A DNA stretch of 64,000 nucleotides from a virus (IMGVR_UViG_3300022915_000001:1-64000), one strand, 5' to 3'. Positions 1,943 to 46,157 are shown, numbered from the stretch's first letter. Numbers and translations are program-made. Notes: generated by a model from the sequence alone, not told the origin.

Positions 1943-4900
1943 CTATTGACATAAAAAAGCAGCCGATCTTATCACTTGGGTATCGGTTCTTTTGATGTAG
2001 AAATACAAGTAACTGTTCGTATGATTGTAGTAGATCATCATTGTCCCAAGCGGCATATTCGCTGTGTCTGCTCCACCGGGTGCCGAATTCCCCATGACGA
2101 TATTGCCTCCTGACGGGTTCAGGTACAACGTACCTACTCCAGCGGCGTGCCATGCCTGGATGGAGCCACCGTAGAACCCGCCAGCATAGGAGGAGTAGCC
2201 CATTGCCATTCCGTAGCCGGGGTTGGCGGAACCCTCGCAGATGAGCACCTGTTGCTGGGCTTTGGTGAAGTTGGTGGGGTTGGCGGTCGGGACGATCACT
2301 AGCGGGTTGGTGGGGTTGACCCAAGTGGGCTGGGAGACGAGCATTGGGCCAATGTTGCCTATACAGACGTTGCCGCCAAGCGGGTTGATGAACATGGGGC
2401 CGGGGGCGGGGGCGGTTTGCAGGACACTTGACCAGACGGCGTTGATGTAACAGAAGCCCAGGCCCAGACCATAAGCACCATTATTGGATGACTCACCAAT
2501 TCGCACTTGATACCCGGCAGGGGCGAAACTGGTGATCGTGCCTGGGGCAATAATCGAGAGAGTTTGATATGGCGCGCTCATTTGACCGATGCCAACCTGA
2601 CCGCTCGCGTTTATGGTCATGCCGATAGGTCCGCCGCCCGATCTCAATTGGAGTCCGGCTGCGATAGAGCTTATCTCCCAGTGATAGGAGTTGTCCGGGG
2701 GACGGAACATGATGGCACTGCCACCGCGTATCTCCATAGGGCCACCAGAGAGAGTGAGTTTAGAGGTTGGCGTATCTGGGCCGATACCGACTAATTGAGT
2801 CGCCGATATGAGCATGGCCTGAACATTGCCTGTATAGAACTGCAACGGGTGCGCGGTGGCCGTTCCGATGGCGCATGTGGTGTTGCAGTTGAACCGGAAG
2901 TCCACGCCGGGGACAGTCATCCGCGTGAGGTAACCGTTGATATCTAACTTCACGCCGGGAGCGCAGACCATGCCGATGCCGATGCCGCCGTCTTGGTTGA
3001 TCCGCATACGCTCATATGCCGCGCCGCCATAGGTGCCAAAGGCGAGATGGGCCATGCCTGACGCATCGCAGATTGCTTCAACATACGCGCTCAACTGTGG
3101 ATTGGCAATGAACCCGCTATGTGGACCGAGGCGTAACCTCATGCTGGCCCCGTCAGTGGTGCCGATGCTGTTGATAAACGTCGCGGTGGCGGTTGTGGTC
3201 GCGCCGCTCACCATCAAGAAATGCTCGTTGACTGAGGACGCATTGATCGAGATGATGCGCGGATTGAGCAGGTTTTTTTGATTGCCGTCGATGTTCTGTA
3301 GCCACGGGGTCTGGGAGCCGCCGGTACTAAGTGGCACACCGTTGACAAGGTATTGGCCGGTGACGTTGCAGTTACCCACGATGTCGAGCGCATGGCCGGG
3401 GGCAGTTGTGCCGATGCCTACGCCAGCAACGACACCGGAGCCGCCAAATGGCATCAGGTTAATAGTCGTGGCAGTAAGTGTGATGGGAGCAAAGGCACTC
3501 TGGGCAGAGGTGACACCTTCGAGGATTGGGCCGAGGAGGCCGGGAGGGAAGCCAAATGAGGCCGGGTCGCCCCGGATGATGAGCACACGGTCAGTGGCCG
3601 CTTCGACAGTGAAGCGTCCAGAGCTAACGTTGGTGGTGCCAATGCCTACGTTTCCAGACTCTGCGATGGTGAACGGGGCGGTCCAGGTCGTGTCCGATAT
3701 CTTGCGATGCACCACCTGGAATGGACCCACTGCGGTGAAAGAGCCTAGCCACCATTCGAACCCGGCTTCGGCGGTCATACTCACACCGGCAGTACGGTCG
3801 AGGCGGAAGCCCGCCGCGTTAACGTCCTGCGCCCACGGTGTCTGCGGTTGCCCGAGAGCCAGCGGCACACCGTTAACCCGATATACACCTGTCACGTCTG
3901 CGTCACCGGACACTTCCAGCTTGTAGGTGGCTGGTGTTTTGCCGATGCCGACAAGACCCGCCGCCGTGATCCGCATCTTCTCGGTAAGAGGAGAATTGGT
4001 CTGGATCGCCACATAGGTGAGGCCATCGAGGATAAGTGGTTCCCCCTGGCAGCGGAGGGTCTTGGCAGTGCTAGAAGCCAACCGGCATTCGGTCGGCATT
4101 CCCGTCAGGAATCCTATATTAGCGCCCGAGCTAGCAACAACGACTTGGGTTGCGTTGTTCAGCGAGAAGCCCGCGGCGTTGATGTCACTCAGCCAGGGCG
4201 TCTGGGCCGCGCCCACCGGGACTCCCCACGTCGCGTCCTCGCGGAGGAACTTAGTGGAACCCGCCGTCGCTCCTGGCGTGGGCACAGTGCCGCCGCGCCC
4301 CGTCGCGCCGCTGGCGATCATGGGCAGCGCGTTGAGGGTTACATCCGCAGTCAGTGCGCCGCCGCCAGACATGCCGGTCCCGGCGATCACTTGCCTCGAA
4401 GTAGGCACGCCCGCCGCTGGAGCTCCCGTGATCTTGGCATAGGCCAACGAGGAGATCCACGATGGATCGGCGTAAGCGACGATGCTCGAAACCGCATTCG
4501 TAACTTGCCCTGCGGTGTAATCCCCCGCCGCCGCGACGACTGCGCCAGAGCGGCCGAACACGCTTGAGACGCCTACGGCCAGCGGGACACCGTTAACCCT
4601 GTAGGTTCCGGTCACGTCCGCGTCTCCAGCCACCTCCAGCCTGTACGCGCTCGGAATTTTGCCGATGCCTACGCGGCCCGCGATGTCGAGCCGCATCGCC
4701 TCGGCGCTGTTCTGGATGAAGGCCAGTGGACCGAACGTCTCGATGACGGCTATATTCGCCGGTAAGCGGGCCGAACCATAAACCCGGATATTCAGGCCGG
4801 TGCCGAGATCGTTCTGGAAGGAGCAGCCGGGGGCGCCGCTCGGGCTGGCGTTCAACTGCCGGAACCCGTCTTGGAAGCCCGTGCCGTCCACGAAGATGCC

Positions 4901-5590
4901 GATGGTGCTCTGCGCACCCACCGCAGGACCGATGCCGATCCCGCCAACCTTGTTGAGCTTGAAACCCGAGGCGTCGATGTCCTGGAGCCACGGCGTCTGT
5001 CCCGCACCGGCCACGGCGCCAGGGATCGTCACGTCGATCCGGTCGAAGGCGGCGTTGTCGGTGGCAGTCACTCCAGCGCCGACAAAGTTCAGGAAGTTTC
5101 GCGGAGTCCTGGCCGTGCCCTCGTCCTGGACGTTGACGGCTCCGGCTGGGCCTGAGGGCCCCTGGACACCTGGGTCGCCTTTGTCACCTTTCGGGCCTTG
5201 GGCTCCGGTGGCTCCGGTGCTACCAACCGGACCTTGGCTACCGGGAACGCCGGGGTCGCCTTGGGGGCCGGTGGCTCCGGTCGGACCTGTGGCTCCGGTG
5301 CTTCCGGTGCTCCCGGTATCGCCTTTGGGACCTGTGGGACCTGTGGGACCGGGGACCGTGCTGGCAGGGCCAGTGGGCCCGGGTATTCCTTGACTACCTG
5401 GGGGACCGGGGACACCTTGACTACCTGGGGGACCGGCAGGACCGATCGGGCCGGGAATCCCTTGAGGACCGGGGGGGCCTGGAATCGGCGTCCCCGCGGC
5501 GAGCACGGCGGTCATCGCTGGCGGTATGCCGAGCGTCACGCGCAACTGCGGATGATCGAGAGTCGCGATCAGTTCGACGACTTTGGTCAC
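1943..5590 (-). CDS. Collagen-like fibre protein (tail or head fibre)
   Basis: N-terminal run of Gly-X-Y triplets ([22 protein letters not shown]...). Four QTPW-x-x-[DN]-[IV]-[DN] modules and repeated VGIG...YxVNGVPL fibre-shaft motifs follow. Confidence 0.85.
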
Positions 5591-6178: not shown

Positions 6179-9100
6179 TTACGGTTTCCTCGCTTTCTTG
6201 TACGGCAGTTTGGCGGTCGTGGCCGCAGCCATGATCTCAGATTCCTTCGCTTTGAAGTGCTCGCGCCAGTATGTCTCGGCCTTCTCGAGTTGTTCCTTCT
6301 CCTGGGCGGTGAGCGAGTTCTTGAAGTCCCGCTTCAGGGTAGCGTTGGTCAGCGCCCCCAGCGGATGGAGCCGCTCGATGGACTTCTTCAGGTTCTGCTT
6401 GGTTCCACCGGCTTCCTTGTAGGCTTCGAGCGCCGTCGCCATCGCGGCCTTGTCTTCGTAGCGCACCGCCATGCGGAAATCATAGAGCGCCTCGGCAGAC
6501 TTCTTCACGGAGTAGCCGCCGCCGCCCACGTCCTTGCCGTTCTCGGCGCCCCACTTCGCGACTTTGTCATACCGGAAGCTGTTGTAGTGGACTTCGCCGG
6601 GATCGTACCGATAGATCACGAAGTCCATCAGCTTGTCGAGCGAGAGGAACTTCTCCTGCGGCTTGGCGATGGCCTTCTTATAGAGACCAACCATGCCGAG
6701 CTCGCGGGCGAGGTACTCGCCGCGGTCCCGAATCTCGCGCTGCTTGAACACGTCGGGGAACGCCGTGCGCCCGAACACGTACTCGCCGGTCGTCTTCACA
6801 TACGGCGTGAAGCCCTGCGCGATTTTGTTGACCGCCGACTTCAGCGGGATCGGCTTGCCCCACATGCGGAAGGTCGTCTGCTCCACGAGGTCTTTGAAAT
6901 CCATGCGCCCGTTGAGGTACTCGCGGGCGTAGAAGGGCGCGGCTTCGAGGCCGCCCCACTCGAGAAGGTCGTCCATCGTGCCGAGCCGGTTGAACACGCG
7001 CACCTTGCCGTTGGAATCGCGGCCCAGGATGATATGGGTCGACTTGCGGACGCTCTCGGGAAGATCCTCTTCCTCGTCGTCCATCATGTAGTTGTTCCAC
7101 AACTCGGTCAGCGTCTTGAGCGCCAGAAGCCGCATCGAAGTGGAGGCGAGCTTCATCGCCGTATACGCGCCGATCCGCGCCGCCGCCCCGGCAGTCCCGG
7201 CCAGGGCGTATCCGAGCGCCGCGCCCTGCCGCCCGTCGTGCCAAGCGTTTGCGACGATGCGCTTGTAGGCCCGCGCGTTCTGCTCCTGGAAGCTCCAGAA
7301 GGGGATCAGGTAGCGGCGCATGAACTGACCGCCGGCGCTCACCTCGTCGTAGGCGAGCATCATGTCGTTGGACAGTTTGTAAGCACGGTCGTTGCGGTTG
7401 CGGAGCGCCATCACCTCTTCGCGGCGCGAGGCTCCAAAGTTCTTGGGCCGGCCCCCGTTGGTCGAGATCTGGTTCCGGTACTCGATGAACGTGGCGTAGC
7501 GCAGAATCCCTTCGCGGATATCGGTCCCGGCGCGAGAGACGTTCCAGGTCGCACGCCACAGATTGATGGCCCCGTTGACGCCCTTCTTGCCCAGGTTGGT
7601 ATCGGGATCGAGCAGGAGGTGCTCCAGCTTGCGGAGCTTGTTGACCTCGCCGATCTCGGCCACCTGGAGGTTGGAGTCCATGCCGCCGCGCTCCCACCAT
7701 TCCTTGAACTCGGGACTCGGCATCTTGCCGGTCCTCTTGAACTCGATGATCTCCTTGAGCGCCGTGCCGACATGGGTGACGGCGTGCGGGTTGACCGCCA
7801 GCACGCGCTCCAGATCGCCTGAGAGGTTCCGCAGGTTGTACTTGATCACCGAGCCGGGATGGATGAGCTTGCCCATCTTCCACCACTCGAGCGGCTTCCT
7901 CCCGATCTTGCTGGCCCACTCCTGGGCGGTCCCTGACGGTCCCTGCATGAACTCCCTGAGCGTGGCGGTGACTTCCTTGGGCAGGACCATCTGTCCTTGC
8001 CGCGAACCCTTCGCCATGATCTTGCGGACCTGATCGTGGGTGACCTGGCCCATGCCCTGCGCGGCGATGGCCTCGGCCAGTTTGTCGGGGATCGAAGCGG
8101 CCACGTAGAAGTGCTCGCGCTTGTCCGCGGTGTAGATCTCGTGCGTCTCCGACTTGAAGGTACTGAGCGCCTTCTCGAGGCTCCCCACGTACTCGGCCCC
8201 GGCGAGCCGCTTGGTGACCCGCTTGCGCCAGCCGGGATCTTTCGGCTTCATCCGCATCACGCGCTGGTACATCGACTCGGCGGTCTGCACCGACACGCCG
8301 CGGCCCCGGTTCTTGTTGTTGTAGTACCGCGCCATCCTGGCGAAGATCGGCATGATGGCGGCCTTGTTGTGCGCCGCCGCCTGCTTCATCAGATCCTTGG
8401 CAATGTTGTGGCCCGACTCGTCCTTGAGCCAGCCGATGAAGTTGGCTCGGGCGGTGTCATACATCATCTCCGAGAGCACCTGGAACTCGGCGCGGATGTA
8501 GTCGAGCGAATAGTCGTGCTGGTTGACCTCGGACTTCTTCAGCCAACTCCTCGCCGTGGGCAGCGTGAAGCGCGAGCCGCCGCCCTGCGCCACGGTCTTG
8601 CCGGCCGCTTCCTTGAGTTCCAGGTGCTTCCAGACGCGGTGTCGGAAGTAGTCCTTGCGCGAGATGGCCTTGGAAACGTCGACGCCCGCCTTCTTCATGG
8701 CCGCGACATAGTCCTTGCGGATCTGCGGCCACATTTGCTGGCGCATGTTGAGCGCCGCGGTGACCTTGGGGTTGGCTTGCGCCCGGGCCCGCGCCTCGGC
8801 CCTGAGCGCGGCCAGTTCGTGGGTGTCTGAGATGCCCCACCACAGATCCTTGTCGAGGACCGGATTGCCCTCGGCCACCTGTTTCTTCACGCGCTCCCAC
8901 ATGTCGTTGTAGGTGACGACTTCGATGAACTCGGTGTACTCTTCCTTCGACAGTTTCTCCAGTTGGTCGATGATGGCCTGGGCCGCTTTGTGGACGGAGG
9001 TCCCCTGCGCCTTCGATACGAAGTTGAGGCGCTGGCGCAACTCGGCGAATCGGGCGCCGCTGGCGAGGTGGACGAACTGCCGCCCGAACATGTCGCGGAG

Positions 9101-12100
9101 CTTCAGGAGACCGCCCTTGAACTTCTCCCAGCCGCTCTTGTCGCCTTCCGAGCGCCGCGCCCTCTGCCGGTCGCGGATCTCAAGGAACCGTGTCGAGGGC
9201 TGGCTCGGCGTGCCGCCCAGCGTGGTCGAGCCGGGGACCGGCTGCTGCGTGGTGGTCAGCGCCTGCGGAGCCGCCGATTCCCGCAGGTTGACCGTGCCGG
9301 TCGAGGCGGCGTGCCGGGACGTGGCCTGGGCTTGGCGGTAGACCTGGCGTGCCACGCTCCTTGAGCCGCGCCCGAATCGGTCGACGATCTCGTTGGTGAA
9401 GTTCTTCCCGTCAATGTTCCCCTGCGCCACGTCGATGGCGATCTTCAGCGCCATGTTGCGGATGACTCTCGGATCGGTGAACTGACCGGAGTAGCTCGGG
9501 GAGATGCCCATGCTGCGGAGCCGCGCCTCGGCCTTCGCAGCGGCGTCGAACAAGGTCATCTGCACGGGCTTCGAGAGCGGCTTGGACGGCGTCGATGGCT
9601 TGGCCGGCGCCGTGGTGGTGGTCGTGGGCGGGAACAGTCCCATCTGCGTGGGCCGGGGCGTGGGCGTCCAGACCGGCGCATGGGTAGGATGGCTCGGCGG
9701 GGACGGGGCCGGTGGCGGCTTCGCCGGGGGAGTCGGAGTAGCGGTCGTCGTGGTGGCCGTCCCTTGATTGATATTGCGGAACGTGTTCTTCATGTCCCCC
9801 GGCTGGACATACTGGAACAGGAGAATGTGCGATTCGCCGTGCTTGGCGATGATCGACTCGCGGTAAGTTCTGGCGATCTCGATGCGGTCGGCCTGAGTCA
9901 GAGTCGGGATATTGTCGCCCGCCAGTACCTTCGCGGTGACCTCGGTGAAGATCGTATGTACATCACGGCCCGCATATCCCCCCGCGGTGGTGAGCAGCCA
10001 GTCCCCGGCCTTTTTGAAGACCGGCAGCTTCATGAGACGTTCTTCTTCAGCCGCATCCAGCGGAGCTTTGCGCTGATCGGCGTGGATCAACTCTTCACGG
10101 GCCGTCGATCTTTTCATCGGGAGCCGCTGCCCCGGTATGTTAGGGCCCTTCTGGGCCAGGGTAAATTGCAGCGATTCGGTCGCGTCTTTGGTCTGGTTGA
10201 TCCACTCAACCAGGTCATTCCTAAACTGTCTGAGGTTCGCCTCGGCGCGTGGGCCTACCCGCGCCATCTCCACAGGATTGTGGAGGAAGTCCTTCAAGAT
10301 CTTCTCTGCGACGTTAGTCCACCCCGCCCGGGCCCCGGAGAGGCCGTTGACGCTCTGGAGCTTGGCTACGTGGGAGATCAGGTCGAGACCGGCCCGATTG
10401 AGATAGATCGTGCCGCTGCCTACGTGATAGGCCATGCGCTTAGGCTTGCCGGGGGGAGTGGTCTTCTCCCATCGGAAGATCGCCTTCTCGAAGGCTTGCT
10501 TCTTGGGAGTCTGGGGCGGGTTGGTGTAGTACGTCCCCATCTTCAGATCGCCAGCGGCGCTCTCGGAGAGCTTGGCGTCTGAGTCTGAGGTTGGGGCGGT
10601 TACCTCTCGGTCGCTTCCGGTATGCTCGGATGCCTGAACGGGGGCGGTAGTTCCACTTCGACCTCTATGTCCAGCGGCTTGTCGTGATCGAACGGCTCTC
10701 CCCCTGCGAACACCAGTTCCAGGTACTCCGCTCTCGTCAAGGGATACCCCATCTTCTTCAGATACTTCAGAAGCGGATAACTGTCTTTCAGCTTCTCGAA
10801 ATCTCTCATACTCATCGGACCACTCGGGCGGTATGATGGCTTTTCCGTTGGCTGTGCTTTTTCTGAGGTCATAGATTTCTTCCCGCGCCTGGTCTACTGT
10901 TATTGTACCTGACGCATACTTTTCCCAGATAGCATCGACCCGTCTTTTGTTGTCGACATTCTTCCATGTCTCAGGGAACAGGCCGCGCACGGCTTCCCAG
11001 GTGACCGACTGCATCTCGCGTCCTAGAAGTCCGCGCCGCTGGCCGGCCCGCCTCGTGGCAATCGCATGGATGCCATAGGTCCAAGCCTCGCCGGTCACCG
11101 TGGACGGGGAGCTTAGATTGTCCTTGACGGCTTGATCGGACAGGGCCAGCGGCCGCAAGGTCCCGGCGGCTACGGCATGGGTATCGACGGTGACATGGAG
11201 GTTCGGGTTGTTCGGGTCGACAAGGTTGTTATAGAAGGACCGGACCTTGTGCTGCTTGCCCAGTTGATCGCTGATGTTTTCAAGAGTCGGATTCTCTAGG
11301 ACAGAGATGGCCTTGGCGATCATGTCCAGGGACTGCCAGACTACCTTCGCATCCGTGCCATCGAGCTTTTTGCCTTTGCCGCGGGGTTCGCCCTCGGGCG
11401 TGAGTACATCAAAGGACCGTTCGTTGTTCCCCTCGTCCCACATGCGCAGCCAGAAGGCTTTGAGGGTAGGATCGGTCAGATCGGTCCAGCGTTTCCCCTT
11501 GATCTGATCGTAGCCGTCCTTGAGTTTCGTCGACGGCGTATAGGGCTTGCCCGCCGCCTTGGCGTCCCGCTTCTTCGTGATCTCAGTCCGGTTGTTGGAG
11601 TCGACCATCCTCTGATAGCCGCCCTCCATCTTGTCGTCCCAGACCGAGGACTCGCGCTGCTTCCAGAACATGAGCGTGCGCCGCGCCAGGTCCACGTTCT
11701 GGAACCAGTCCTTCATCGGCGAGAGGGTTGCCATCACTGCGGCAACCTGATGAGCCTCGGAGTCGAACTGCTCGGCGAACCGCTCGGCGATCTTGCGGCC
11801 CCCGTCGTACCAGAGTTTGGACCGCTGGAGGAGATCGCCCCATTCTCGCTTGTAGCGGTCATAGAGCCAGACCAGATTGTCCTCAACGAACTTGGTGAAG
11901 TCGCGGACGATCTTCTTGGGATCGGTCTCCGTGCTGCCCTTGAGGTGCGGGTACTTGAGGATCAGCGGCGCGGCCACCTCGGCGGGCTCGTCGTACTTCT
12001 TGAACCCGTCGCCGGTCAGCGTCAGGTTCTCGGTGGAATCCTCGGTCGCGCTATCCGCGGTGGTGAGGCGCGTCGACATTTCCTCCGGTATGAACCGGAC

Positions 12101-15100
12101 GGGGTTGGCCTTCCACTCCTTGATCTGATCGACAACCTTGGCGGCCTTGGCTCGGTGCTTCTCGCCGTACCTGTCGACGATAGCCTGCTCTACGCTCTTG
12201 ATCCCGATCTTGCCTCGGGCGATATCGCCCATGAACGCCTTGGCCGTATTGTGAACGAAGTCCGCGCTGGTCGGCCCCGTCTTGCTGCGCGAGAACAGCG
12301 TACCCTGGCGCGGCGCATCCTTGTCCCCGAACAGATCCTGCTGCGCGTCCTTGGCCGGTTTGAGCTTGCGCTGCTTCTCCTCGGGCGTAAGCTCGGTGGC
12401 GAAGCCGGCCGTCAGCCGTTCGCCGAGCAGCTTGGCGGCGTCGTCGGGCTGCTCCTGCTTCTCTAGTTCAAGGGCGGTTTGTTCTCCGCGTCTCGGCCCC
12501 ACTGCTTCTTCAGCGAGTCTGCGAACGCCTCGTTCTCGTCCTTCCCTTCCTCCCTCGCCCTCTCGGCCGCCAGTTGGGCCGCGTTGAAGTTCGACACCGC
12601 TTTTCGGCTGAACCCCTTCGGCGCGGCCAGTATCTTTCTTGGTCGTTTCGCTGCCACGGAATGCCTCCTTCACCTCTCCGGGTTTGGCGTACCGGAACAG
12701 GACAATCGCGTCCTCGCCATGCGCGTCGAGCAACGCCTGCCTATATGCTTGCGCAACTTCCACGCGCTCGTCCATCGTGAGGCCGAGCGAGGTCCCCGCG
12801 AGTATCTTGGCGGTGACTTCCTTGAAGTCCTGAATGGGATCTGCCTCGTACCCCATCTCCCTCACCGCCTCGGCGGCCTTGGCGAAGACCGGCGTCTTCA
12901 TCAGGTCTTCCATGACCTGGTCTTTCAATGCAGCCACGCGCTGCGCGGCGTGCATCAACTCTTCGCGGACGGTGTTACGAATGTCGTCCGAGAAGTACTT
13001 CTGGGCGCGAACGAAATTCAAGCCGGCGCCCGGGCCCGCCGTCTCCCGGTACTTGGCTACTTGATCGCGGAGCTTCTCCAGGTTGTCCAGGGCGGCTTTG
13101 CTCAGGCCGTACTTACCGGCTTTGAGGTTTGCCAGTTCGCCGCCGTCGCGGTCCAGCGTCGTCATTAAGGTGACAACGTCAACGTCGTCCATCGAGGAGC
13201 CTTCCACGCGGTCCCCGCCGCCCAAAAGCTGGATGATGTACATGCCGCCCTGGTTCGCATAGACCGTGCGGCTCTGGGCTCCCCTCTTGGGGAAGCGGAA
13301 GGTTGCCGTCCTAAAGTTGTGTTCGGCCTCCCAGAGCGCGGAATCGGGGATTTGGGTTCCCTCGGGCGAGGTAACCGGCCCCGGCTGCTCCTGCTTCTGG
13401 GATCTGCTGAAGAGCGTGCCGCCTTTGCGCTCGGGCGAGGGGACCGCTCCCGGCGCTTCGCGCTCGGCGGCTTGCTGCGAGAGTCCTCCGGTATCCTGGC
13501 GGGGGACCGTCAGCGGTCCATCGGCGGGATCGGCGTTGGTGTCCTCGATCTGCTCCCTGATGGCCGCGCGAACCTTCCCGCCGTGCGCCCTGACCTGGGC
13601 CGGGGTCATCCCGGTGTGCTTCTTGACGAAGTCCACATACTCGGAATCCCGCGCGGATCGCTTCTGCTGCGCCGTGATGTACGCCGCGCGATCTACGTCG
13701 GATTCAAAGTTCAGTTCGTGGGCGCCGTACCGCGGCGCGGCTCCGCTGAGTTCCCTCGGGAGTTTCGGTCCTACTCCAGCGGGGGCGGCTTGAGAGGTTC
13801 CTCGCTGGGGTTGCTGAGTTCCACCTCCCCGTCCGGTATCTGGAGGTGGCCCCCCTCGATCCACTCCCGTAGGTCCGCTAACGTCCGGTTTCGGACCTCC
13901 TCCCCCAGTTTCTCGTATGATGGCTGCCTTGATTGCTGCATAGGTGTCCTCTAATACGGCAGAGAGCTTCTCCCCGCCCTGTATCCTGACCGCGCCGGCA
14001 GTCAGGGCTTTCGAGATATCGCCCGACTTCAGGCTCAGGGCGTTGTAGACTTCCAAAGCCTGAGCGGCATCGGCGGCGATGGCTCGGTTCTGCTCTTCTT
14101 CGATGACGTTGCCGCCACGCGCGAGCGTCTGGCCTACGCCCTTCTTGCCTACCGTGCCAAAGATCCGCTTCTCCTGACCGAGCCGCTTCTTGATAGCATC
14201 GCTGAGGATCGCCTCATGGACTTCCAGGCTCTGGCCCCCGCCGCTCGGGTCTCCGAACATATCCCCGAACAGGCTCCCCTGGTCGTCGCCCTTTTCCTTG
14301 GCCTTGCGAAGCCGTTCACGCTGCTCGTCGGTCAACTCCATCTCGGCGGCCTTGGCCTTGGTGCGTCGGATGAGTTCGGCCAACTGGCCGTCGTTCATGT
14401 CCTTGCCAACCTTGGCAATCGCTACCATGTCTGCTGGGTTGTCCAGACCTTCGCCGATAATGGTGGCCCTGTCGACCTTCAGATCCCCGGCCAGTAGCTC
14501 CTCGAAGAGCGACTCGGGCAGCTTGGCGAGCGCGGTCCCTTGCCGCGCCTTCTCGCCCTTGAGGTGGACGCCGGCCTGCTTTACCTGCTCGGGCGTGTAG
14601 CCCGAATCGCGCAGGAACTTGGCGGCGTCGATGGCGGTCCCCCGGCCCTCGGCGATATTCTGCAACGCGCCCTTGGCTCTGGCTTCCGTCGCGTCCTTGG
14701 CCTGGATGTAGCGAACGTCTACACCGGCCACTCCCATGCGCTTGGCCTTGTCGAGCCGGTGGTGTCCATTGACCACATAGGTCTTGCCGTTCGCTGGATC
14801 TCTCCAGACGGTGAGCACGCCGCCAAGCTCCTCGTTCCAGGGAACGTCTGGGTCCTTGAGTTCGTCACCGACTCCTGCCTTGCCGCCGGTATCGCGCTTG
14901 AACTGGAACCGCACCGGATCGGCTTCGATCTCGTTGGGGTCCATGCGCGTGACGCCACTGTCCATCGCCTTCCTGGCGGGCGGCTCCATGCCTGGGAAAA
15001 GCGAACTCTGGCCTTCCCCGCTGGTGTCCTTCGGCTCCCCTTGATCGACAACCGGAGTTGACGGTTCGACAACCGGAGTTGACGGCTCTGGAGCCGCTGG

Positions 15101-17284
15101 GGCAGTGGGAGGTCCAGGCTGCCCCAATGCTGGCGGCGGTTCTTGTCCTTGTACGTCCTCCTTTCCTTCTGGAACTGGCGGCGGCACGCCGACACGGTCC
15201 TCGCCCTCCTCGCCCTTGAGTTCTGGCGCTGGCGGCGCGGTCCCTACCGGCGGCGGCGCGGCTACCGGCGGCGGCGCTTCAGGCTGATCCTTGACTCGCG
15301 TTCCCTTGGTGACCGGGGACTTCCCGGCTCGATCCTTCTTCAGTGTGAGGTTGACGTAGCTGGTAGTGCCGTCATTCAGCGGCTTGGCCGCGAGGACGCC
15401 GGCCTTCACCATACTGTCGAGCACTTCCTGGGCGGCTTCTGGCGCGACACCAAACATCTGCTGAATGTGGCGCACTTCCACCTGGGACCGGCTGGCGGCA
15501 ACGTCGAATACCGCGCGGTAGAGGTCTTCCCCTTCGAGCGGCGGCGGCTTCTCGGGGGCCTTCTCGTCCGATCCCGGCAGCGTCTCTGGCGTCACCGCAT
15601 CCGGGTCGCCCGTGGGCGGCGGCGCCCCAGGAGGTGGAGGTTGCTGGACCGGAGGGGGCGTGACCGGCGGCGGGGGCGTGACCGGGGGAGGAACAATGGG
15701 TGCGGGGGCCGGCCCGCTGCCAACCTCTACTCCCGGCTGTTGCTGCTCGGGAGCCGCACCGGGGGGAGGAGCTTCGCCGGGAGGAGGCGCTTCGCCCACC
15801 GGAGGAACAAGACCCGGGCCCTCGTCCTGCACTCCAGGTTGCCCCAGCGCCTCGCCGCCGTTAGCCATCCGGTTCTTGTGGTAATTGGTCAGCGCGTCGA
15901 AGTGGTCCCGGTATTCCTTGAGCTTCTTCCCGACATTGATCTCGTCCCGGTGCTCGGCGATCTGGCCTATCGTCACCGAGGGGCCGCTCCCAAGCATCCC
16001 CGCCACGCCTTCGTCGAACATGGCATCGCGGAACTCAGGCCAGGTCGGCCACTTCCCGGTATTCATCCCCTCGGTGAAGATCGCCGCGGCTTTCTGGGCA
16101 GACTCGGTGACGCCCTCCCAGCCGAACTCCTTGGCTCCTTCATAGACACGCCGTTTGATGGACTTCTTGAGTTCTTCCGGTAGCGGGCTGTTCCTGAGTT
16201 TGGAGATGATCCTCCCAGGAACGAGGTAGTCCATCGGCGTAGCCAGGATGGAGCCTTCGACCGCCACCTTCCCGGCTTCAGCCGGATGCATCCCATTCTT
16301 GGTCAGGTCGTTGAACTGCTCCCCGGCGTTTGCCAGGAAGGAGTCTATGACGCCGCCGCCGGGGATCAACAATCCTGCCCCGATAGTCGCCAGCATTTGC
16401 GGCGCGTTTTCCAGAATCGTCTCGCCCGTCCACTGAGCGACGGACCCAAACGTCTTGTTCGGATCGTTCAACAGTTCGGTGGCAGACGGACGCGACATCA
16501 GGTTGACGCCGTGCATCGCCTTCGATTCGACGTACTCCCCGGCCCTGGCGGCGAGATCCGCTCCCGGCATCCCCTTGGCGTCAAGGGGGCGGGCTAGCGC
16601 CTGCAGGCCCTGGCCGCGCCCAGCAATCGTGGTCTGCGCTCCTTGCTTCAAAGACTTCCAGAGGCGGTCGAGCGCCGGGGCATCCGCTTCTGGAGCAGGT
16701 TCATCTGGCTCTGCCAGTCTGGCTTTGAGGGCTTCCGGGGATTCCCGCGTGAGGCCCTGAGCGCCATCGGTCGAGAGGTAGTCGGGAACTTCCGGTGTCG
16801 TGCGCTGGGTCAGCTTCCACTTGGACGGGTCCGATTCCTCCCAGGCGGGAACCCGTGTGTTCTGGGAAGGGGGAGCCGCGGGATCGAACTTGTCCCCGGT
16901 CCAGGTGCGGTTGGGTCCGGTGTACTCGGGCGAGATCCGGTTGAGCGGTTGCCGCTGTGCACCCGCTTCGACCGCAGGGCGGCGCACGGCCCCCGGGCCC
17001 TGGCCGGGACCGCCGAGATCCCAAGGCGTAGCCACCTTCCCCACGCCGGGGAGTCCGGTGAGACCGGCGCCGGGAACGTCGGCGGCGGTGTAGGACGGAC
17101 CTTGTGGGGCGGTGAAGGGCGAGGGGCCAGCCGGGGCCGGGGCGGCGCTCGGGACCGGCGCTCCTACTGCTGGCTTAAAGCCGAGCTCGCGCCACTTCTT
17201 CTCTTCGTCGTCTTCCGGGGGCGGCTGAACCGGCGCCAGCGGCTTGAACCCTAGCGCGGCCCAAGGATCTGATTGGTCTGCCAT
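6179..17284 (-). CDS. Giant (3701 aa) polyvalent virion/ejection protein
   Basis: Sits after three other ejection-type genes. Contains a winged-helix-like segment (~15380-15520), a ParB-like domain (VVNGHHRL, ~14450-14945), two paralogous EELxH zincin-like domains (12655-12990 and 9775-10110), a WY...LSP...KVRSFYNN...VTVDTHA domain (~10900-11830) and an LPD38-like C-terminus (YLIPFWSFQEQN, ~6500-7400). Confidence 0.85.
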   Translation of the reverse strand: MADQSDPWAALGFKPLAPVQPPPEDDEEKKWRELGFKPAVGAPVPSAAPAPAGPSPFTAPQGPSYTAADVPGAGLTGLPGVGKVATPWDLGGPGQGPGAVRRPAVEAGAQRQPLNRISPEYTGPNRTWTGDKFDPAAPPSQNTRVPAWEESDPSKWKLTQRTTPEVPDYLSTDGAQGLTRESPEALKARLAEPDEPAPEADAPALDRLWKSLKQGAQTTIAGRGQGLQALARPLDAKGMPGADLAARAGEYVESKAMHGVNLMSRPSATELLNDPNKTFGSVAQWTGETILENAPQMLATIGAGLLIPGGGVIDSFLANAGEQFNDLTKNGMHPAEAGKVAVEGSILATPMDYLVPGRIISKLRNSPLPEELKKSIKRRVYEGAKEFGWEGVTESAQKAAAIFTEGMNTGKWPTWPEFRDAMFDEGVAGMLGSGPSVTIGQIAEHRDEINVGKKLKEYRDHFDALTNYHKNRMANGGEALGQPGVQDEGPGLVPPVGEAPPPGEAPPPGAAPEQQQPGVEVGSGPAPAPIVPPPVTPPPPVTPPPVQQPPPPGAPPPTGDPDAVTPETLPGSDEKAPEKPPPLEGEDLYRAVFDVAASRSQVEVRHIQQMFGVAPEAAQEVLDSMVKAGVLAAKPLNDGTTSYVNLTLKKDRAGKSPVTKGTRVKDQPEAPPPVAAPPPVGTAPPAPELKGEEGEDRVGVPPPVPEGKEDVQGQEPPPALGQPGPPTAPAAPEPSTPVVEPSTPVVDQGEPKDTSGEGQSSLFPGMEPPARKAMDSGVTRMDPNEIEADPVRFQFKRDTGGKAGVGDELKDPDVPWNEELGGVLTVWRDPANGKTYVVNGHHRLDKAKRMGVAGVDVRYIQAKDATEARAKGALQNIAEGRGTAIDAAKFLRDSGYTPEQVKQAGVHLKGEKARQGTALAKLPESLFEELLAGDLKVDRATIIGEGLDNPADMVAIAKVGKDMNDGQLAELIRRTKAKAAEMELTDEQRERLRKAKEKGDDQGSLFGDMFGDPSGGGQSLEVHEAILSDAIKKRLGQEKRIFGTVGKKGVGQTLARGGNVIEEEQNRAIAADAAQALEVYNALSLKSGDISKALTAGAVRIQGGEKLSAVLEDTYAAIKAAIIRETGGGGPKPDVSGPTGVDRGGPPPDTGRGGGTQQPQRGTSQAAPAGVGPKLPRELSGAAPRYGAHELNFESDVDRAAYITAQQKRSARDSEYVDFVKKHTGMTPAQVRAHGGKVRAAIREQIEDTNADPADGPLTVPRQDTGGLSQQAAEREAPGAVPSPERKGGTLFSRSQKQEQPGPVTSPEGTQIPDSALWEAEHNFRTATFRFPKRGAQSRTVYANQGGMYIIQLLGGGDRVEGSSMDDVDVVTLMTTLDRDGGELANLKAGKYGLSKAALDNLEKLRDQVAKYRETAGPGAGLNFVRAQKYFSDDIRNTVREELMHAAQRVAALKDQVMEDLMKTPVFAKAAEAVREMGYEADPIQDFKEVTAKILAGTSLGLTMDERVEVAQAYRQALLDAHGEDAIVLFRYAKPGEVKEAFRGSETTKKDTGRAEGVQPKSGVELQRGPTGGREGEGGREGRERGVRRLAEEAVGPRRGEQTALELEKQEQPDDAAKLLGERLTAGFATELTPEEKQRKLKPAKDAQQDLFGDKDAPRQGTLFSRSKTGPTSADFVHNTAKAFMGDIARGKIGIKSVEQAIVDRYGEKHRAKAAKVVDQIKEWKANPVRFIPEEMSTRLTTADSATEDSTENLTLTGDGFKKYDEPAEVAAPLILKYPHLKGSTETDPKKIVRDFTKFVEDNLVWLYDRYKREWGDLLQRSKLWYDGGRKIAERFAEQFDSEAHQVAAVMATLSPMKDWFQNVDLARRTLMFWKQRESSVWDDKMEGGYQRMVDSNNRTEITKKRDAKAAGKPYTPSTKLKDGYDQIKGKRWTDLTDPTLKAFWLRMWDEGNNERSFDVLTPEGEPRGKGKKLDGTDAKVVWQSLDMIAKAISVLENPTLENISDQLGKQHKVRSFYNNLVDPNNPNLHVTVDTHAVAAGTLRPLALSDQAVKDNLSSPSTVTGEAWTYGIHAIATRRAGQRRGLLGREMQSVTWEAVRGLFPETWKNVDNKRRVDAIWEKYASGTITVDQAREEIYDLRKSTANGKAIIPPEWSDEYERFREAERQLSASEVSEEDGVSLDESGVPGTGVRRGRAVRSRQAAGHRGRSGTTAPVQASEHTGSDREVTAPTSDSDAKLSESAAGDLKMGTYYTNPPQTPKKQAFEKAIFRWEKTTPPGKPKRMAYHVGSGTIYLNRAGLDLISHVAKLQSVNGLSGARAGWTNVAEKILKDFLHNPVEMARVGPRAEANLRQFRNDLVEWINQTKDATESLQFTLAQKGPNIPGQRLPMKRSTAREELIHADQRKAPLDAAEEERLMKLPVFKKAGDWLLTTAGGYAGRDVHTIFTEVTAKVLAGDNIPTLTQADRIEIARTYRESIIAKHGESHILLFQYVQPGDMKNTFRNINQGTATTTTATPTPPAKPPPAPSPPSHPTHAPVWTPTPRPTQMGLFPPTTTTTAPAKPSTPSKPLSKPVQMTLFDAAAKAEARLRSMGISPSYSGQFTDPRVIRNMALKIAIDVAQGNIDGKNFTNEIVDRFGRGSRSVARQVYRQAQATSRHAASTGTVNLRESAAPQALTTTQQPVPGSTTLGGTPSQPSTRFLEIRDRQRARRSEGDKSGWEKFKGGLLKLRDMFGRQFVHLASGARFAELRQRLNFVSKAQGTSVHKAAQAIIDQLEKLSKEEYTEFIEVVTYNDMWERVKKQVAEGNPVLDKDLWWGISDTHELAALRAEARARAQANPKVTAALNMRQQMWPQIRKDYVAAMKKAGVDVSKAISRKDYFRHRVWKHLELKEAAGKTVAQGGGSRFTLPTARSWLKKSEVNQHDYSLDYIRAEFQVLSEMMYDTARANFIGWLKDESGHNIAKDLMKQAAAHNKAAIMPIFARMARYYNNKNRGRGVSVQTAESMYQRVMRMKPKDPGWRKRVTKRLAGAEYVGSLEKALSTFKSETHEIYTADKREHFYVAASIPDKLAEAIAAQGMGQVTHDQVRKIMAKGSRQGQMVLPKEVTATLREFMQGPSGTAQEWASKIGRKPLEWWKMGKLIHPGSVIKYNLRNLSGDLERVLAVNPHAVTHVGTALKEIIEFKRTGKMPSPEFKEWWERGGMDSNLQVAEIGEVNKLRKLEHLLLDPDTNLGKKGVNGAINLWRATWNVSRAGTDIREGILRYATFIEYRNQISTNGGRPKNFGASRREEVMALRNRNDRAYKLSNDMMLAYDEVSAGGQFMRRYLIPFWSFQEQNARAYKRIVANAWHDGRQGAALGYALAGTAGAAARIGAYTAMKLASTSMRLLALKTLTELWNNYMMDDEEEDLPESVRKSTHIILGRDSNGKVRVFNRLGTMDDLLEWGGLEAAPFYAREYLNGRMDFKDLVEQTTFRMWGKPIPLKSAVNKIAQGFTPYVKTTGEYVFGRTAFPDVFKQREIRDRGEYLARELGMVGLYKKAIAKPQEKFLSLDKLMDFVIYRYDPGEVHYNSFRYDKVAKWGAENGKDVGGGGYSVKKSAEALYDFRMAVRYEDKAAMATALEAYKEAGGTKQNLKKSIERLHPLGALTNATLKRDFKNSLTAQEKEQLEKAETYWREHFKAKESEIMAAATTAKLPYKKARKP
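10600..10872 (-). CDS. Nested (+1 frame) small protein inside the giant gene
   Basis: 90 aa with natural globular composition (YPLLKYLKKMGYPLTRAEYLELVF...ELPPPFR). The overlapping main frame degenerates to an R/G/S-rich linker (GVRRGRAVRSRQAAGHRGRSG), and the region is locally AT-richer. Confidence 0.7.
   Translation of the reverse strand: MTSEKAQPTEKPSYRPSGPMSMRDFEKLKDSYPLLKYLKKMGYPLTRAEYLELVFAGGEPFDHDKPLDIEVEVELPPPFRHPSIPEATER
12463..12657 (-). CDS. Nested (+1 frame) small protein inside the giant gene
   Basis: Perfect SD AAGGAGG 6 nt before GTG. 64 aa: MAAKRPRKILAAPKGFSRKAVSNFNAAQLAAERAREEGKDENEAFADSLKKQWG... The main frame here is a G/R/E linker. Confidence 0.65.
   Translation of the reverse strand: MAAKRPRKILAAPKGFSRKAVSNFNAAQLAAERAREEGKDENEAFADSLKKQWGRDAENKPPLN
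13771..13941 (-). CDS. Nested (+1 frame) small protein inside the giant gene (not in ORF track)
   Basis: AGAGGA-cacct-ATG, then 56 aa MQQSRQPSYEKLGEEVRNRTLADLREWIEGGHLQIPDGEVELSNPSEEPLKPPPLE*. The main frame here is a G/P-rich linker. Confidence 0.6.
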   Translation of the reverse strand: MQQSRQPSYEKLGEEVRNRTLADLREWIEGGHLQIPDGEVELSNPSEEPLKPPPLE

Positions 17285-37463: not shown

Positions 37464-37820
37464 TCAGTACGCTTCTTCGAGGTCTTCTTCTTCGGTGTCT
37501 TCGATGCCGAGCATCTCCTCTTCGCCCTCGTCCTCGGGGAGCGTGTCGCCCTCGCCGCCTTCGCCGAGCAGCGTGAAGCTATCGCAGTGGCCCTGCGGTT
37601 CGGCGTCGAAGTTGTGCTTCTTGCACTGCATGGCGTCCTCGTCGAAGTACTCGCAGGTTTCGCAGCGTTCGGCGGCGCTGGTGTAGTTGACCGATTCATG
37701 GGAGGTCTTGGTGGAGCCTCCCTGCCTGACGGGGCCGGCCTGGGCTGATTTCGCGGGCGGCGGCATCGCCTCTTCGGGAGACGGCGGCGGCGCTCCCAAC
37801 TCGTCCATTGATGGGCTCAT
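37464..37820 (-). CDS. HiPIP-like Cys-motif protein
   Basis: VNY...ERCETCEYF...QCKK...EPQGHCDSF: four Cys with the spacing of high-potential iron-sulfur proteins. Acidic tail. Confidence 0.55.
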   Translation of the reverse strand: MSPSMDELGAPPPSPEEAMPPPAKSAQAGPVRQGGSTKTSHESVNYTSAAERCETCEYFDEDAMQCKKHNFDAEPQGHCDSFTLLGEGGEGDTLPEDEGEEEMLGIEDTEEEDLEEAY

Positions 37821-39790
37821 AGCAAACCTTTCCTGGCTAACATCGCGTCACGCAACAGAATACAGGACTCGCTGGCATTGTTTTGCTTATCGTAACGCTG
37901 CTGCGCCAGTTGGGCGATCATGATCTTCATGTTGTAGTCGTTGTCCTGCGGGTTGAGCGCGGCGATCCGGTCGATCTCCTCGCCGATAAAGATCTCGCGC
38001 GGGACCTTACTCTCGAAGTCCTTGAACCCCATGCAGCCGTACCGGAGACTATCGGCGGGATCGTCGCCGATCGTGGTCTCGGACGAGTCGAATTTCTTCA
38101 CGTCCTCGGGGTTGTTCGGGTAATCGGAAACCAGCTTGGGAATAGTTTCGATCAGGATCTGGCACTTGTCGTGGAAGCGGATGCGGGGGAGGATTTCGTC
38201 GTGCTGGCCCGCGAACTTCTCCATGTACTTCTGGTAGGCCACGATCCCGCGCGTCCTCAGGATCATGTCGCCGTAGTCGTGGTCCGGTTCGGCTTTCTTG
38301 ATCAGCGGCTGGTAGCGGAACAAGCCGCGGATGAACTCCCAGCCCGCCTCGCGTGCGCTGTTGGCGCGGGTGAACCAGATGGAAGCGCCGTCCACTTCCG
38401 ATTGCGCGAGGCGTTCTTCGCGCAGCCGCAGGGCGCCCTGCGGGTCGAGCTTCGACACGAGCAGTTCCTGCGGCGTGAACTCCATGATCACCGAGCTTCC
38501 CGGCCCCAGGATGCGCTGCACGCCGTAAGCGATCTGGTCCGAGATCATGTGGTCCTTGTCGCGGACTTGAAAAGCGTCCGGTGAGAGATAGCAGCGGATG
38601 CGCGGCTCCTTCATCCGCTCGAGCCGCTCGATGGAGCGCCGCGCGATCTCCGCGCCGAGCTCGTCGGCGCCCATGCCGGCGATCACCAGTTCGTCTTCGA
38701 CGTGAATGCGCTTGTCGGTGGAGAGCGCGTACCAGTACACCGCGGTGTGATGCTTGTGGCCCCAGTCGCAACTCATCCAGCGGTGACACCAGGAGGGGAT
38801 CGTGTGACTGGGAATGACGTGGTACGCCTCGGGGAATTCCTTGATCTCGGAGGCAATCGCGCGGGGACGGAAGTTCGGGTAGAACATGCCGGCCGAGATA
38901 TCCCAGTCGCCGTCGATCCACGCCTTCCTCCTGGACTCGGGATGCGAGGGATCGTTGAGCCGGTCTGCGTAGTGCGGGTCCTGCTGCAACAACTGCGGAT
39001 TGTCCTTGAGCGGCCCGTGGAGGTAGATCTTGCAGCGCCGCGAGTGCGGGTCGTAGATCGGCGTGCCATACGGGAACAGTTCGCCGTCCTCGTTGCGGCG
39101 CACCTTGACGAACCTGGCTTTCAACCAGTGAGCGCCGGGGCCGTCAGGGTTGGCGGTGAGGAGGATCTGCGGCCTGAGCCCGGGGACCGAGGTGCGGTTC
39201 GATGAGAGGATGGCGGCATAGAGGGCCTCGCTTTTTATCTGCTCCGCTTCCTCGATCACGATGCGGTGGTACTCATGGCCGCGATACTGCTCGAAGGACT
39301 GCTCGTCCTTGAGGTAGCCGGTGTAAATCATTGCTCCTGTCGGGAACAAGAACGACGTGGGATTTCCCTTTTTGACCGCGCCCATCAGCCGGTACATGGC
39401 CCACGCCTTTTCAATCGTCTCCTTCATCGCCTCGTTCGACAAACGAAGGAGCGTCCCCACATACTTGGGGTTGTTGACGTACCCCGCCGCCCAGGCGATC
39501 CCCGCCGCGGTCTTGCCGCCGCCTCTCGGGCCGCCGGCCAATATTTCGTCGCAGATGAACTTGATATTCGGAGGGAGCGGGGAGCGCGTGGCGGGATCGT
39601 AGAAGGTGACGCCCTCGGGGTTACTCCAGAAGAAGATGTTCTCCTGCATTCCGGGGTTGGCCTGCCAGATCAGTTCACCGGACGGGGCGATGAACTTGGT
39701 GCGGTTGTAGGAGCCTACGCGCAGGGCCAACTGCTCGGGGGAAAGACGGACGGCTTCTTCGGGGGCGGTCGGTTTATTGGGGCGGGCCAC
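37817..39790 (-). CDS. terL: Terminase large subunit
   Basis: Walker A GGPRGGGKT, Walker B IVIEEAEQ, coupling motif TANPDGPG, nuclease motifs CDWG and DPADSLRY. Confidence 0.92.
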   Translation of the reverse strand: MARPNKPTAPEEAVRLSPEQLALRVGSYNRTKFIAPSGELIWQANPGMQENIFFWSNPEGVTFYDPATRSPLPPNIKFICDEILAGGPRGGGKTAAGIAWAAGYVNNPKYVGTLLRLSNEAMKETIEKAWAMYRLMGAVKKGNPTSFLFPTGAMIYTGYLKDEQSFEQYRGHEYHRIVIEEAEQIKSEALYAAILSSNRTSVPGLRPQILLTANPDGPGAHWLKARFVKVRRNEDGELFPYGTPIYDPHSRRCKIYLHGPLKDNPQLLQQDPHYADRLNDPSHPESRRKAWIDGDWDISAGMFYPNFRPRAIASEIKEFPEAYHVIPSHTIPSWCHRWMSCDWGHKHHTAVYWYALSTDKRIHVEDELVIAGMGADELGAEIARRSIERLERMKEPRIRCYLSPDAFQVRDKDHMISDQIAYGVQRILGPGSSVIMEFTPQELLVSKLDPQGALRLREERLAQSEVDGASIWFTRANSAREAGWEFIRGLFRYQPLIKKAEPDHDYGDMILRTRGIVAYQKYMEKFAGQHDEILPRIRFHDKCQILIETIPKLVSDYPNNPEDVKKFDSSETTIGDDPADSLRYGCMGFKDFESKVPREIFIGEEIDRIAALNPQDNDYNMKIMIAQLAQQRYDKQNNASESCILLRDAMLARKGLL

Positions 39791-43882: not shown

Positions 43883-44109
43883 GGGGCGAGCACCAGTTCC
43901 ATGCCGCGCTTGGTGGCGCGGCTCAGTTCAAGCCTGATATCGGCTTCCTGAAGGACGAGGGCCAGGATGACGCCCATCACCGGCCCCGTCTTCTTGTCTT
44001 CGAGCGGCACGCGCACCCAGACCGTGCGCTCCGCTTCGTCGATCCCGGTCTCGTAGTGCAAACCCGACAGGTCGACGGCTTCCTTCACCTTCCAGAGGCG
44101 CTCACTCAT
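43879..44109 (-). CDS. Hypothetical protein
   Basis: MSERLWKVKEAVDLSG..., directly after the MTase stops. Confidence 0.5.
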   Translation of the reverse strand: MSERLWKVKEAVDLSGLHYETGIDEAERTVWVRVPLEDKKTGPVMGVILALVLQEADIRLELSRATKRGMELVLAP

Positions 44110-46069: not shown

Positions 46070-46157
46070 CGACCACCCCGCGAGCGATCACGTCCGCTTT
46101 CATCAGTTCCCGCAGCCACGCCGCTTTCTGAGAGTCGATCTCGTTGTAGTAAACCAA
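44112..46157 (-). CDS. DNA (cytosine-5) methyltransferase, alpha polypeptide (motifs I-VIII and X)
   Basis: HFFAGIG (I), TGSCPCGPFS (IV, catalytic PC), RHLW, FGEQV (VI), HLRQRLYW (VIII) and C-terminal LRGAGDAI (X-like). About 450 aa between VIII and X look like off-frame filler. TTG start. Confidence 0.85.
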   Translation of the reverse strand: MVYYNEIDSQKAAWLRELMKADVIARGVVDERPIQLVQPGDLDGYTQCHFFAGIGVWSYALRRAGFSDDFPCWTGSCPCGPFSAAGKREAENDPRHLWPDFFRLIEARRPVCVFGEQVSSIDGLGWLDLVRTDLDAADYTIGVLDTCAAGAGAPHLRQRLYWGAGLAYALRPTGERLPRGVFGPEAEERGAGIGDGDLADGPGSGFAVGGVADAERLGGIGRGQGAQGGRPGSLERFEGFCHARRVADADDRGPQAGRPLGRGAGGDRRDEDDRPAAAELCPACGVAHADAAGGRDQREAADRAARGGDGFGRGGDAGGVADAAGSRRQQIAADGGRDGEGSPEGRQVLVAGGDGAPDGVALSAVQGLEERGDGGRAARPQLAPVVGGGDVGGMGDSDPRGRRELGGADRPGRFGYADFPDEAGGMVDAAEAGPLPGAHTGIRGGEGQRGPRDDEPERRGDADGLGDPEYAEWGQDQRERRGYRQESGWLEGADWAGEPGQTRWLGDPDDAGLDQRGQRDVHPLRPGVGAPRRLDADRPDAPDGVADAPLAAGARFERERVDVPGPRSAVDGVADADGGDAVAEGLQRRREQRLVARDAGGVPVAGPVNGFWAGADWVLTRPQRVGDGPSLRPTAPSLFPLAPRLAYRVLGLRGAGDAINAEQAAWFLRAWIEEDEEGARR
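44400..45670 (-). repeat. Tandem array of 12 variable modules (84-135 nt) joined by a conserved ~21-nt junction
   Basis: Plus-strand GGCGTCGGCCACCCCGCCAGC-like junctions near 44410, 44515, 44634, 44754, 44871, 44967, 45069, 45190, 45291, 45411, 45517 and 45651. Confidence 0.85.

Follow-up and report, generated by a model that had tools for sequence, protein, structure and literature searches.

The genome of a soil phage of approximately 63% G+C raises the question of whether one giant structural gene can carry other genes hidden within its own coding sequence. The DNA analysed here, hereafter the window, is a stretch of 64,000 nucleotides (nt) (IMGVR_UViG_3300022915_000001, positions 1–64000) from a viral record of 73,209 bp that is rated complete. 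In its late/structural region, a single open reading frame (ORF) on the minus strand (6179–17284) encodes a multidomain virion protein of the 'polyvalent' type, 3701 amino acids (aa) in length. Three small ORFs, here termed A, B and C, lie on the same strand wholly inside this giant ORF, and all are offset by +1 from its reading frame (frame 0). We consider it probable that these are conserved small genes nested in the giant gene, each linked as a cassette to the domain encoded immediately upstream.

ORF A (13771–13941, minus strand) encodes 56 aa from an ATG start and its product is acidic (isoelectric point, 4.6), ORF B (12463–12657, minus strand) encodes a basic protein (isoelectric point, 10) of 64 aa from a GTG start, and ORF C (10600–10872, minus strand) encodes 90 aa from an ATG start; they map to residues 1115–1172, 1543–1608 and 2138–2229 of the giant protein, respectively. 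ORF A begins in the last codons of a ParB-like region (giant aa 778–1102; 13979–14953, minus strand), ORF B where the first EELxH domain (giant aa ~1290–1542; 12659–13417, minus strand) ends, and ORF C inside a DUF7178 domain (giant aa 1787–2155; 10820–11926, minus strand), the end of which is overlapped by its first ~18 codons. Each ORF starts where a globular stretch ends, and the rest of it lies beneath low-complexity giant-protein sequence rich in glycine, arginine and proline (G/R/P). Upstream of the starts are the sites AGAGGA (13947–13952, minus strand), separated from the ATG of ORF A by 5 nt, AAGGAGG (12664–12670, minus strand), separated from the GTG of ORF B by 6 nt, and, for ORF C, a weak GGGAAG-N6-ATG. 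A preliminary description of this DNA, made from the sequence alone, had placed three +1 ORFs with ribosome-binding-site-like sequences here, at the points where the giant protein turns G/R/P-rich, and both observations were borne out, the site of ORF C being the weak one. The ATG of ORF A arises from the frame-0 codons TAT-GCA, and the GTG of ORF B from the frame-0 arginine codon CGT and the following G; CGT is rare, making up 6% of the arginine codons in the phage.

Codon usage sets the three ORFs apart from most of the gene that contains them. A codon model trained on the other genes of the same phage and run in 183 segments of the giant gene favoured frame 0 in 173 of them; the other ten cluster at four places, namely ORFs A, B and C and one further stretch. 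Under the nested ORFs, the frame-0 G+C content at third codon positions (GC3) is 0.38–0.47 versus the 0.82–0.83 expected from the amino acids (z-scores of −9.4 for A, −7.4 for B and −10.6 for C), a drop that is due to the rare codons GGA, CGA and AGA. The fourth place (giant aa 681–760; ORF 14719–15195) was discarded as a candidate because its +1 reading is arginine-rich junk. The longest +1 open stretch of the giant gene (14719–15243, minus strand; giant aa 681–854; 174 codons) is rich in arginine, glutamine and serine, has a GC3 dip of z ~ −5.5 and is probably not a gene.

The variation between strains follows the same division. A variant of the phage, represented by contigs from one soil run (X13) at a depth of ~8, differs from the window at 27 sites within 10500–14000. 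Outside the nested ORFs, 20 of 21 single-nucleotide polymorphisms (SNPs) fall on third positions of frame 0, and the number of synonymous changes is also 20; inside A, B and C, none of the six falls on a frame-0 third position and five fall on third positions of the +1 frame. By our own arithmetic, the chance of such a split is ~2e-5. The phage is present in many soil and leaf-litter runs, at least 17 of which (2017–2021) contain at least half of the sequence words sampled from 10500–14000. Two wastewater runs labelled RNA-Seq contain approximately a fifth of the words sampled from the same interval.

Conservation was examined for each ORF separately. BLAST of the +1 peptides against a first set of distant relatives gave no significant match, and genome-contig scans for ORFs B and C gave none. 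A HMMER search of 1.84 billion representative sequences, however, recovered ORF C itself, already predicted as a gene in one of the sources, and with ORF C as the query (phmmer) found seven small proteins of 74–149 aa (E = 1.4e-9 to 4.9e-4) that share the cores PLTR..YL and ELPPPF. On the contigs of these matches, the small gene is in +1 and overlaps the 3′ end of a reading frame that encodes DUF7178. Gene callers had called the ORFs of this family as separate genes, and the copies at L067, L042 and L057 begin with an ATG behind a Shine–Dalgarno (SD) site; across the family the ATG is present and the SD site ranges from weak to strong. One member, P0029 (149 aa; L059:8001-8450), carries two tandem family cores and sits among small ORFs on a bacterial-looking contig with no DUF7178 nearby.

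A scan with the DUF7178 domain alignment found at least 570 viral stretches in IMG/VR, of which the best 80 were taken and 74 were analysable. The +1 frame is open for at least 55 codons in 73 of these 74 loci, versus 7 for the +2 frame, and a hidden Markov model of the C family matches the +1 peptide in 71 of them (64 distinct sequences, forming 23 clusters at 70% identity). Within the domain, mean GC3 in these loci is 0.54, and the stretch under the ORF averages 0.33 when read in frame 0 and 0.63 when read in +1. DUF7178 and its small overlapping gene appear as a widespread two-gene module, and ORF C is almost certainly a real gene.

The position of ORF C is also occupied by other sequences. 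In another clade of giant proteins (L001–L034), a different small ORF lies at the C site with an invariant ATG, which is made by frame-0 AAT-G or GAT-G, and its ratio of non-synonymous to synonymous divergence (pN/pS) is 0.38 in +1 versus 1.54 in frame 0. Profile comparison of the C family with this second family was not significant (E = 0.09), and with a wider profile the only part that matched was the N-terminal one, which is forced by frame 0 (E = 0.005). Because the similarity does not extend beyond this forced part, we regard them as distinct families that share a position. Within the same clade, the near-identical loci L002 and L001 differ near locus position 7233, where the giant frame of L002 stops just past the small ORF and that of L001 runs 1000 codons further, which gives a natural example of splitting or fusion in the linker at the C site.

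ORF B is also very likely to be a real gene. Its first homologue was a 63-aa protein of 71% identity, and the ORF is kept in five phages (the window, G001, G003/L064, L061 and L062/L045), in +1 and immediately past the EELxH domain; a further candidate, L047, was rejected as a spurious match. At the DNA level, the ORF B region retains 81% identity, against ~33% identity of the flanking protein, and AAGGAG[GA]-N6-GTG together with the frame-0 CGT codon is invariant in all five. Over ten pairs that are not independent of one another, pN/pS is 0.56 in +1 and 1.04 in frame 0, with 0.51 in the flanking domain, and the frame-0 'synonymous' divergence is 0.27 under ORF B versus 0.585 in the flanking domain. 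In the closest pair, the differences are almost exclusively synonymous in +1 (pN of 0.04 and pS of 0.33 in that frame). In G003, an extra domain of ~330 aa, absent from the window, follows in the giant frame straight after the ORF B homologue (L064:1270-2330); because this domain is inserted after B, B stays with the EELxH domain upstream.

For ORF A, sequence comparison indicates a likely gene, less secure than B and C. Neither a word-based protein search nor scans of viral contigs, with the single sequence or with a two-sequence alignment, found a homologue. In G003, the ParB-like region of which is 61% identical to that of the window, a 49-aa +1 ORF lies at the same point, and 23 of its 49 residues are identical to those of ORF A (pairwise BLASTP, E = 4e-9). 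Its ATG comes from TAT-GCC, such that TAT-GCN is kept, an AGGGAG site lies upstream and GC3 dips locally; for this one pair, pN/pS is 0.58 in +1 versus 0.97 in frame 0. G003 has ~120 extra residues after A and, because these are inserted after it, A stays with the upstream ParB-like domain. G001 has neither a match to the ParB-like region of the window nor a convincing ORF A homologue. A 97-codon +1 open stretch in G001 (L051:8451-8744; giant aa ~1125–1222) has a GC3 dip of z = −6.5; only its last ~33 codons are protein-like, and its similarity to ORF A is not significant.

The preliminary description had proposed to judge the nested ORFs by stand-alone homologues beside the same domain, by stop codons in the +1 frame of relatives and by selection in each frame. 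The C family accompanies DUF7178 in nearly all of the loci, the +1 frame is kept open there, and pN/pS is lower in +1 than in frame 0 for A, for B and for the second family at the C site.

The loci of the C family also indicate how a nested arrangement might arise. In L067, a 713-aa DUF7178 protein ends right at the domain end, and its reading frame shares 44 nt with the small gene, which is preceded by GAGGAG; L042 and L056 have a similar unfused layout, and in all three the small gene has its own SD site. In L065, frame 0 extends ~50 codons beyond the small ORF, and in the window, G001, G003/L064 and L037 it proceeds into further domains after the C site. Among the 74 loci, frame 0 ends at the domain end in 18 and ~60 codons later in 37, and it continues for more than 200 codons beyond the motif in 17, some of which are included because the frame is still open where the locus ends. 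ORF C stays with DUF7178 while the downstream genes vary between phages. Because the C cassette is found unfused in other phages, the giant gene appears to read through retained partner genes. The earlier proposal that the giant gene grew by read-through fusion is in keeping with this series from unfused through tail-embedded to fused copies, which may reflect fusion or fission. Overall, there is good support for overprinted partner genes with read-through fusion in the case of C and B, and for A this reading is plausible.

We suggest that the nested proteins would be translated from their own internal ribosome-binding site and start codon, and that each start codon would arise from a rare frame-0 codon. 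The 'linker' of G/R/P-rich sequence over each ORF would then be the off-frame reading of the small gene, and the giant gene would contain three two-gene cassettes: the ParB-like region with A, the EELxH domain with B and the glycosylase-like DUF7178 with C. Such an arrangement suggests a growth route for giant genes, in which a stop codon is lost and translation reads on through a neighbouring gene that is retained, and calls for giant genes to be read anew, with some of their low-complexity sequence seen as the by-product of a second gene.

Several observations weigh against this interpretation. The lengths of the ORFs are unremarkable, as the giant gene has 7 +1 ORFs of at least 56 aa versus 9.9 expected from synonymous-codon shuffles, and the spans of A, B and C remain free of stops in 47–67% of such shuffles. 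The +1 frame of the giant gene has 107 stops; a +1 stop requires a codon with T in the second place, and the linkers, being poor in hydrophobic residues, therefore have few of them. Length was accordingly discarded as evidence for a gene, since the shuffles yield as many long ORFs or more. Milder GC3 dips occur in other linkers that lack a convincing +1 protein (for example, giant aa 681–760), so that a dip alone is not diagnostic of a gene. The pairwise pN/pS values come from short sequences and are non-independent. ORF A is supported by one relative, G003, and L054, a relative of the domain downstream of A, has +1 stops there. P0029 is a member of the C family that lies away from any DUF7178. 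As to expression and function, no RNA run among the public runs listed for the stretch contains it, Pfam, PHROGs and NCBIfam searches with the three +1 peptides gave no match, and no family, fold or defence-library match indicates what the nested proteins do. Finally, a paralogue of the EELxH domain at giant aa ~2290–2503 has no nested ORF, and the lack of a B-like partner at this second EELxH domain fits poorly with an obligate immunity role.

Three other explanations were considered. The one that survives best, although improbable, is programmed +1 frameshifting, by which the +1 ORFs would be alternative C-terminal tails and the giant gene would also yield truncated polyproteins ending after the ParB-like, EELxH and DUF7178 domains. 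It would account for the fact that all three ORFs are +1 and sit where domains end; ORF B is closely preceded by a strong SD-like site, a type of site that stimulates +1 shifting in prfB; and in the unfused relatives the overlap of the small ORF with the 3′ end of the DUF7178 gene recalls the layout of the tail-chaperone genes G and GT. A shift, however, needs no start codon, yet start codons are conserved, made from frame-0 CGT-G for B, TAT-G for A and AAT-G or GAT-G for the second family. There is no in-frame stop, no shared slippery or stop-adjacent site is apparent by eye (no systematic motif search was made), and the C-family ORFs are treated as separate genes by gene callers.

Nested genes also account for the data better than relics do. 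On the latter explanation, which we regard as very improbable, the ORFs would be the functionless and slowly decaying remains of formerly separate genes that were taken in by read-through fusion. The resemblance of the frame-0 linkers to off-frame junk, the retention of an older frame in codon usage and the small number of relatives of ORF A would all be expected of relics. Open frames, starts and SD sites are nevertheless kept in relatives whose host domains are only 35–60% identical, the +1 frame has pN/pS values below 1 as against values of about 1 or more in frame 0, and the +1 frame is intact in all but one of the 74 loci. Least probable of all, and already contradicted for B and C, is that G/R/P-rich linkers merely lack +1 stops by chance and composition and use rare A/T-ending codons for some other reason, such as translational pausing, which would suit the outcome of the shuffles, the absence of a surplus of long +1 ORFs and the GC3 dips of several linkers (one with an arginine-rich junk +1 reading) but fails to account for the family matches, the +1 peptide being conserved above frame 0, the unfused homologues, the conserved start codons and the SNPs at +1 wobble sites.

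The domains next to which the nested genes lie, and the giant protein as a whole, were characterized by family and sequence searches. The sole Pfam match on the giant protein is DUF7178 (PF23802; aa 1820–1903; E = 1.4e-19), with frame-0 homology reaching to aa ~2155, and Pfam searches with seven segments of the protein gave no match; PHROGs matched aa 778–1102 to the C-terminal part of PHROG 21 (E = 5.8e-54). Searches of PDB sequences with the giant protein, its ParB-like part and its EELxH part gave no match. The domain names of the preliminary description fared unequally: the 'KVRSFYNN' domain is DUF7178 by Pfam, the EELxH domain has no family match in Pfam or the PDB sequence search, and 'ParB-like' denotes the PHROG 21 match and a GHHR motif, with no Pfam or PDB sequence match. 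Relatives of the giant protein in a large protein set are multidomain proteins of 2083–5056 aa with ~35% identity across the DUF7178 region, and they carry DUF7178 together with PF18760, PF18857, PF18834, PF18838 and PF02195, the first four of which probably belong to the polyvalent-protein domain set of Iyer et al. The giant protein fits the polyvalent class by architecture and size, its own Pfam match being DUF7178 only. Megablast against deposited phage genomes found no close relative of the phage. Elsewhere in the window are a tail-fibre gene (1943–5590), the large terminase (37817–39790) and two ORFs of 655 and 681 aa on the minus strand (44102–46157) that overlap almost completely in different frames.

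To what end might a small gene be kept beside each domain? The AlphaFold2 (AF2) model of ORF C comprises three short helices with a predicted local distance difference test score (pLDDT) of ~90, and that of DUF7178 has a pLDDT of 91.3. In a VIA-align comparison of the DUF7178 model, 22 of the 24 top rows are HhH-GPD DNA glycosylases or QNG1, a protein of queuine salvage (Z of 9.2 to 5.4), the best Z of 9.2 being middling for a helical protein; Foldseek with the models of ORF C and DUF7178 returned nothing below E = 0.39. Because of the middling Z and the lack of a Foldseek match, the predicted resemblance of DUF7178 to the HhH-GPD DNA glycosylase fold is only a lead. The ESM Atlas gave no usable match for B or C, and weak sigma-factor-like rows for C were not trusted. 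Proteins of the C family are mostly acidic, as is A, and B is basic. The steady linkage of each small gene to its upstream domain fits a domain-specific partner. A tentative suggestion, akin to the cognate-inhibitor or immunity role that the preliminary description put forward as a hypothesis, is that each small protein attaches to the domain encoded before it and holds this domain inactive or folded while the giant protein is produced and packaged. If the small protein silences that domain, C could act as an inhibitor of a DNA-glycosylase-like effector, and such small proteins would be a source of specific enzyme inhibitors.

Nested ORFs of this kind also occur in other giant phage genes. The 4545-aa DarB-like gene of Ralstonia phage Cimandef contains a 107-aa +1 ORF behind AGGAGG-N6-ATG (L053:4416-4739), which lies under a junk-like linker with a GC3 dip (z = −8.5). 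Using tblastn, we found matches to this ORF in 31 Ralstonia and 9 Burkholderia phage records, with 40% identity between the Ralstonia and Burkholderia phages; among the rows listed, only the giant coding sequence or a 'hypothetical protein' is annotated beneath the match. In gp75 of Burkholderia phage Bcep22 (L073:1501-1824), the only case in which the frame was checked, the nested ORF is again +1, and GC3 there is 0.50 in frame 0 versus 0.82 in +1, with 0.87 overall. Bcep22 gp75 and its Ralstonia phage relatives offer testable cases in cultured phages. It is a speculative extension, and one we consider unlikely, that the linkers of giant polyvalent or DarB-like virion proteins generally are read-through over cognate inhibitor or chaperone genes and that the C family comprises new DNA-glycosylase inhibitors; if the linkers were generally of this nature, hundreds of phages would hold a hidden layer of unannotated genes.

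The arrangement can be compared with several known systems. As in the tail assembly chaperones G and GT, a second frame opens at the 3′ end of a gene; G/GT, however, depends on a −1 shift at a slippery site without an independent start, whereas starts and SD sites are conserved here. Ugi and p56 are acidic proteins of phages, only 56–84 aa in length, that inhibit a DNA glycosylase, namely the host uracil-DNA glycosylase (UDG). C-family proteins, mostly acidic, 74–90 aa long and encoded beside a glycosylase-like domain, resemble them in these respects only, as Ugi and p56 have no sequence or fold similarity to the C family and target host UDG rather than a phage enzyme. As in enzyme–inhibitor cassettes, the small gene lies directly after an enzyme-like domain and is co-inherited with it. 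Polymorphic toxin–immunity cassettes likewise place a small cognate gene immediately after a modular enzyme-like domain, but there the immunity genes lie outside the toxin ORF, whereas here the small genes lie inside the giant ORF and their partner role is a predicted one.

The architecture of the giant protein matches that of the polyvalent proteins, giant injected multidomain proteins described by Iyer et al. in 2017 (PMC5512222). In that paper, the word 'overlapping' is absent and the relevant passages describe no gene nested in another frame, nor do the relevant passages of the JC1 genome paper mention such a gene within its DarB-like gene; as far as these passages go, it seems that no set of partner genes hidden below the inter-domain linkers of a giant injected protein had been reported before. 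Embedded genes as such are already known in phages, and Rz1 is the classic case: the Rz/Rz1 spanin genes occur in embedded, overlapped and separated architectures (PMC6139136, PMC5295617). The nested ORFs resemble Rz1 in that a small gene with its own start lies wholly within another in +1, in that start and ribosome-binding site are kept in relatives, in that the +1 frame is under purifying selection and in that relatives show separated, overlapped and embedded pairs; the two products of Rz/Rz1 are thought to work together. They differ from Rz1 in having no lipoprotein or membrane signals, and in that the host is an 11-kb multidomain virion-protein gene with three nested genes, each under an inter-domain linker.

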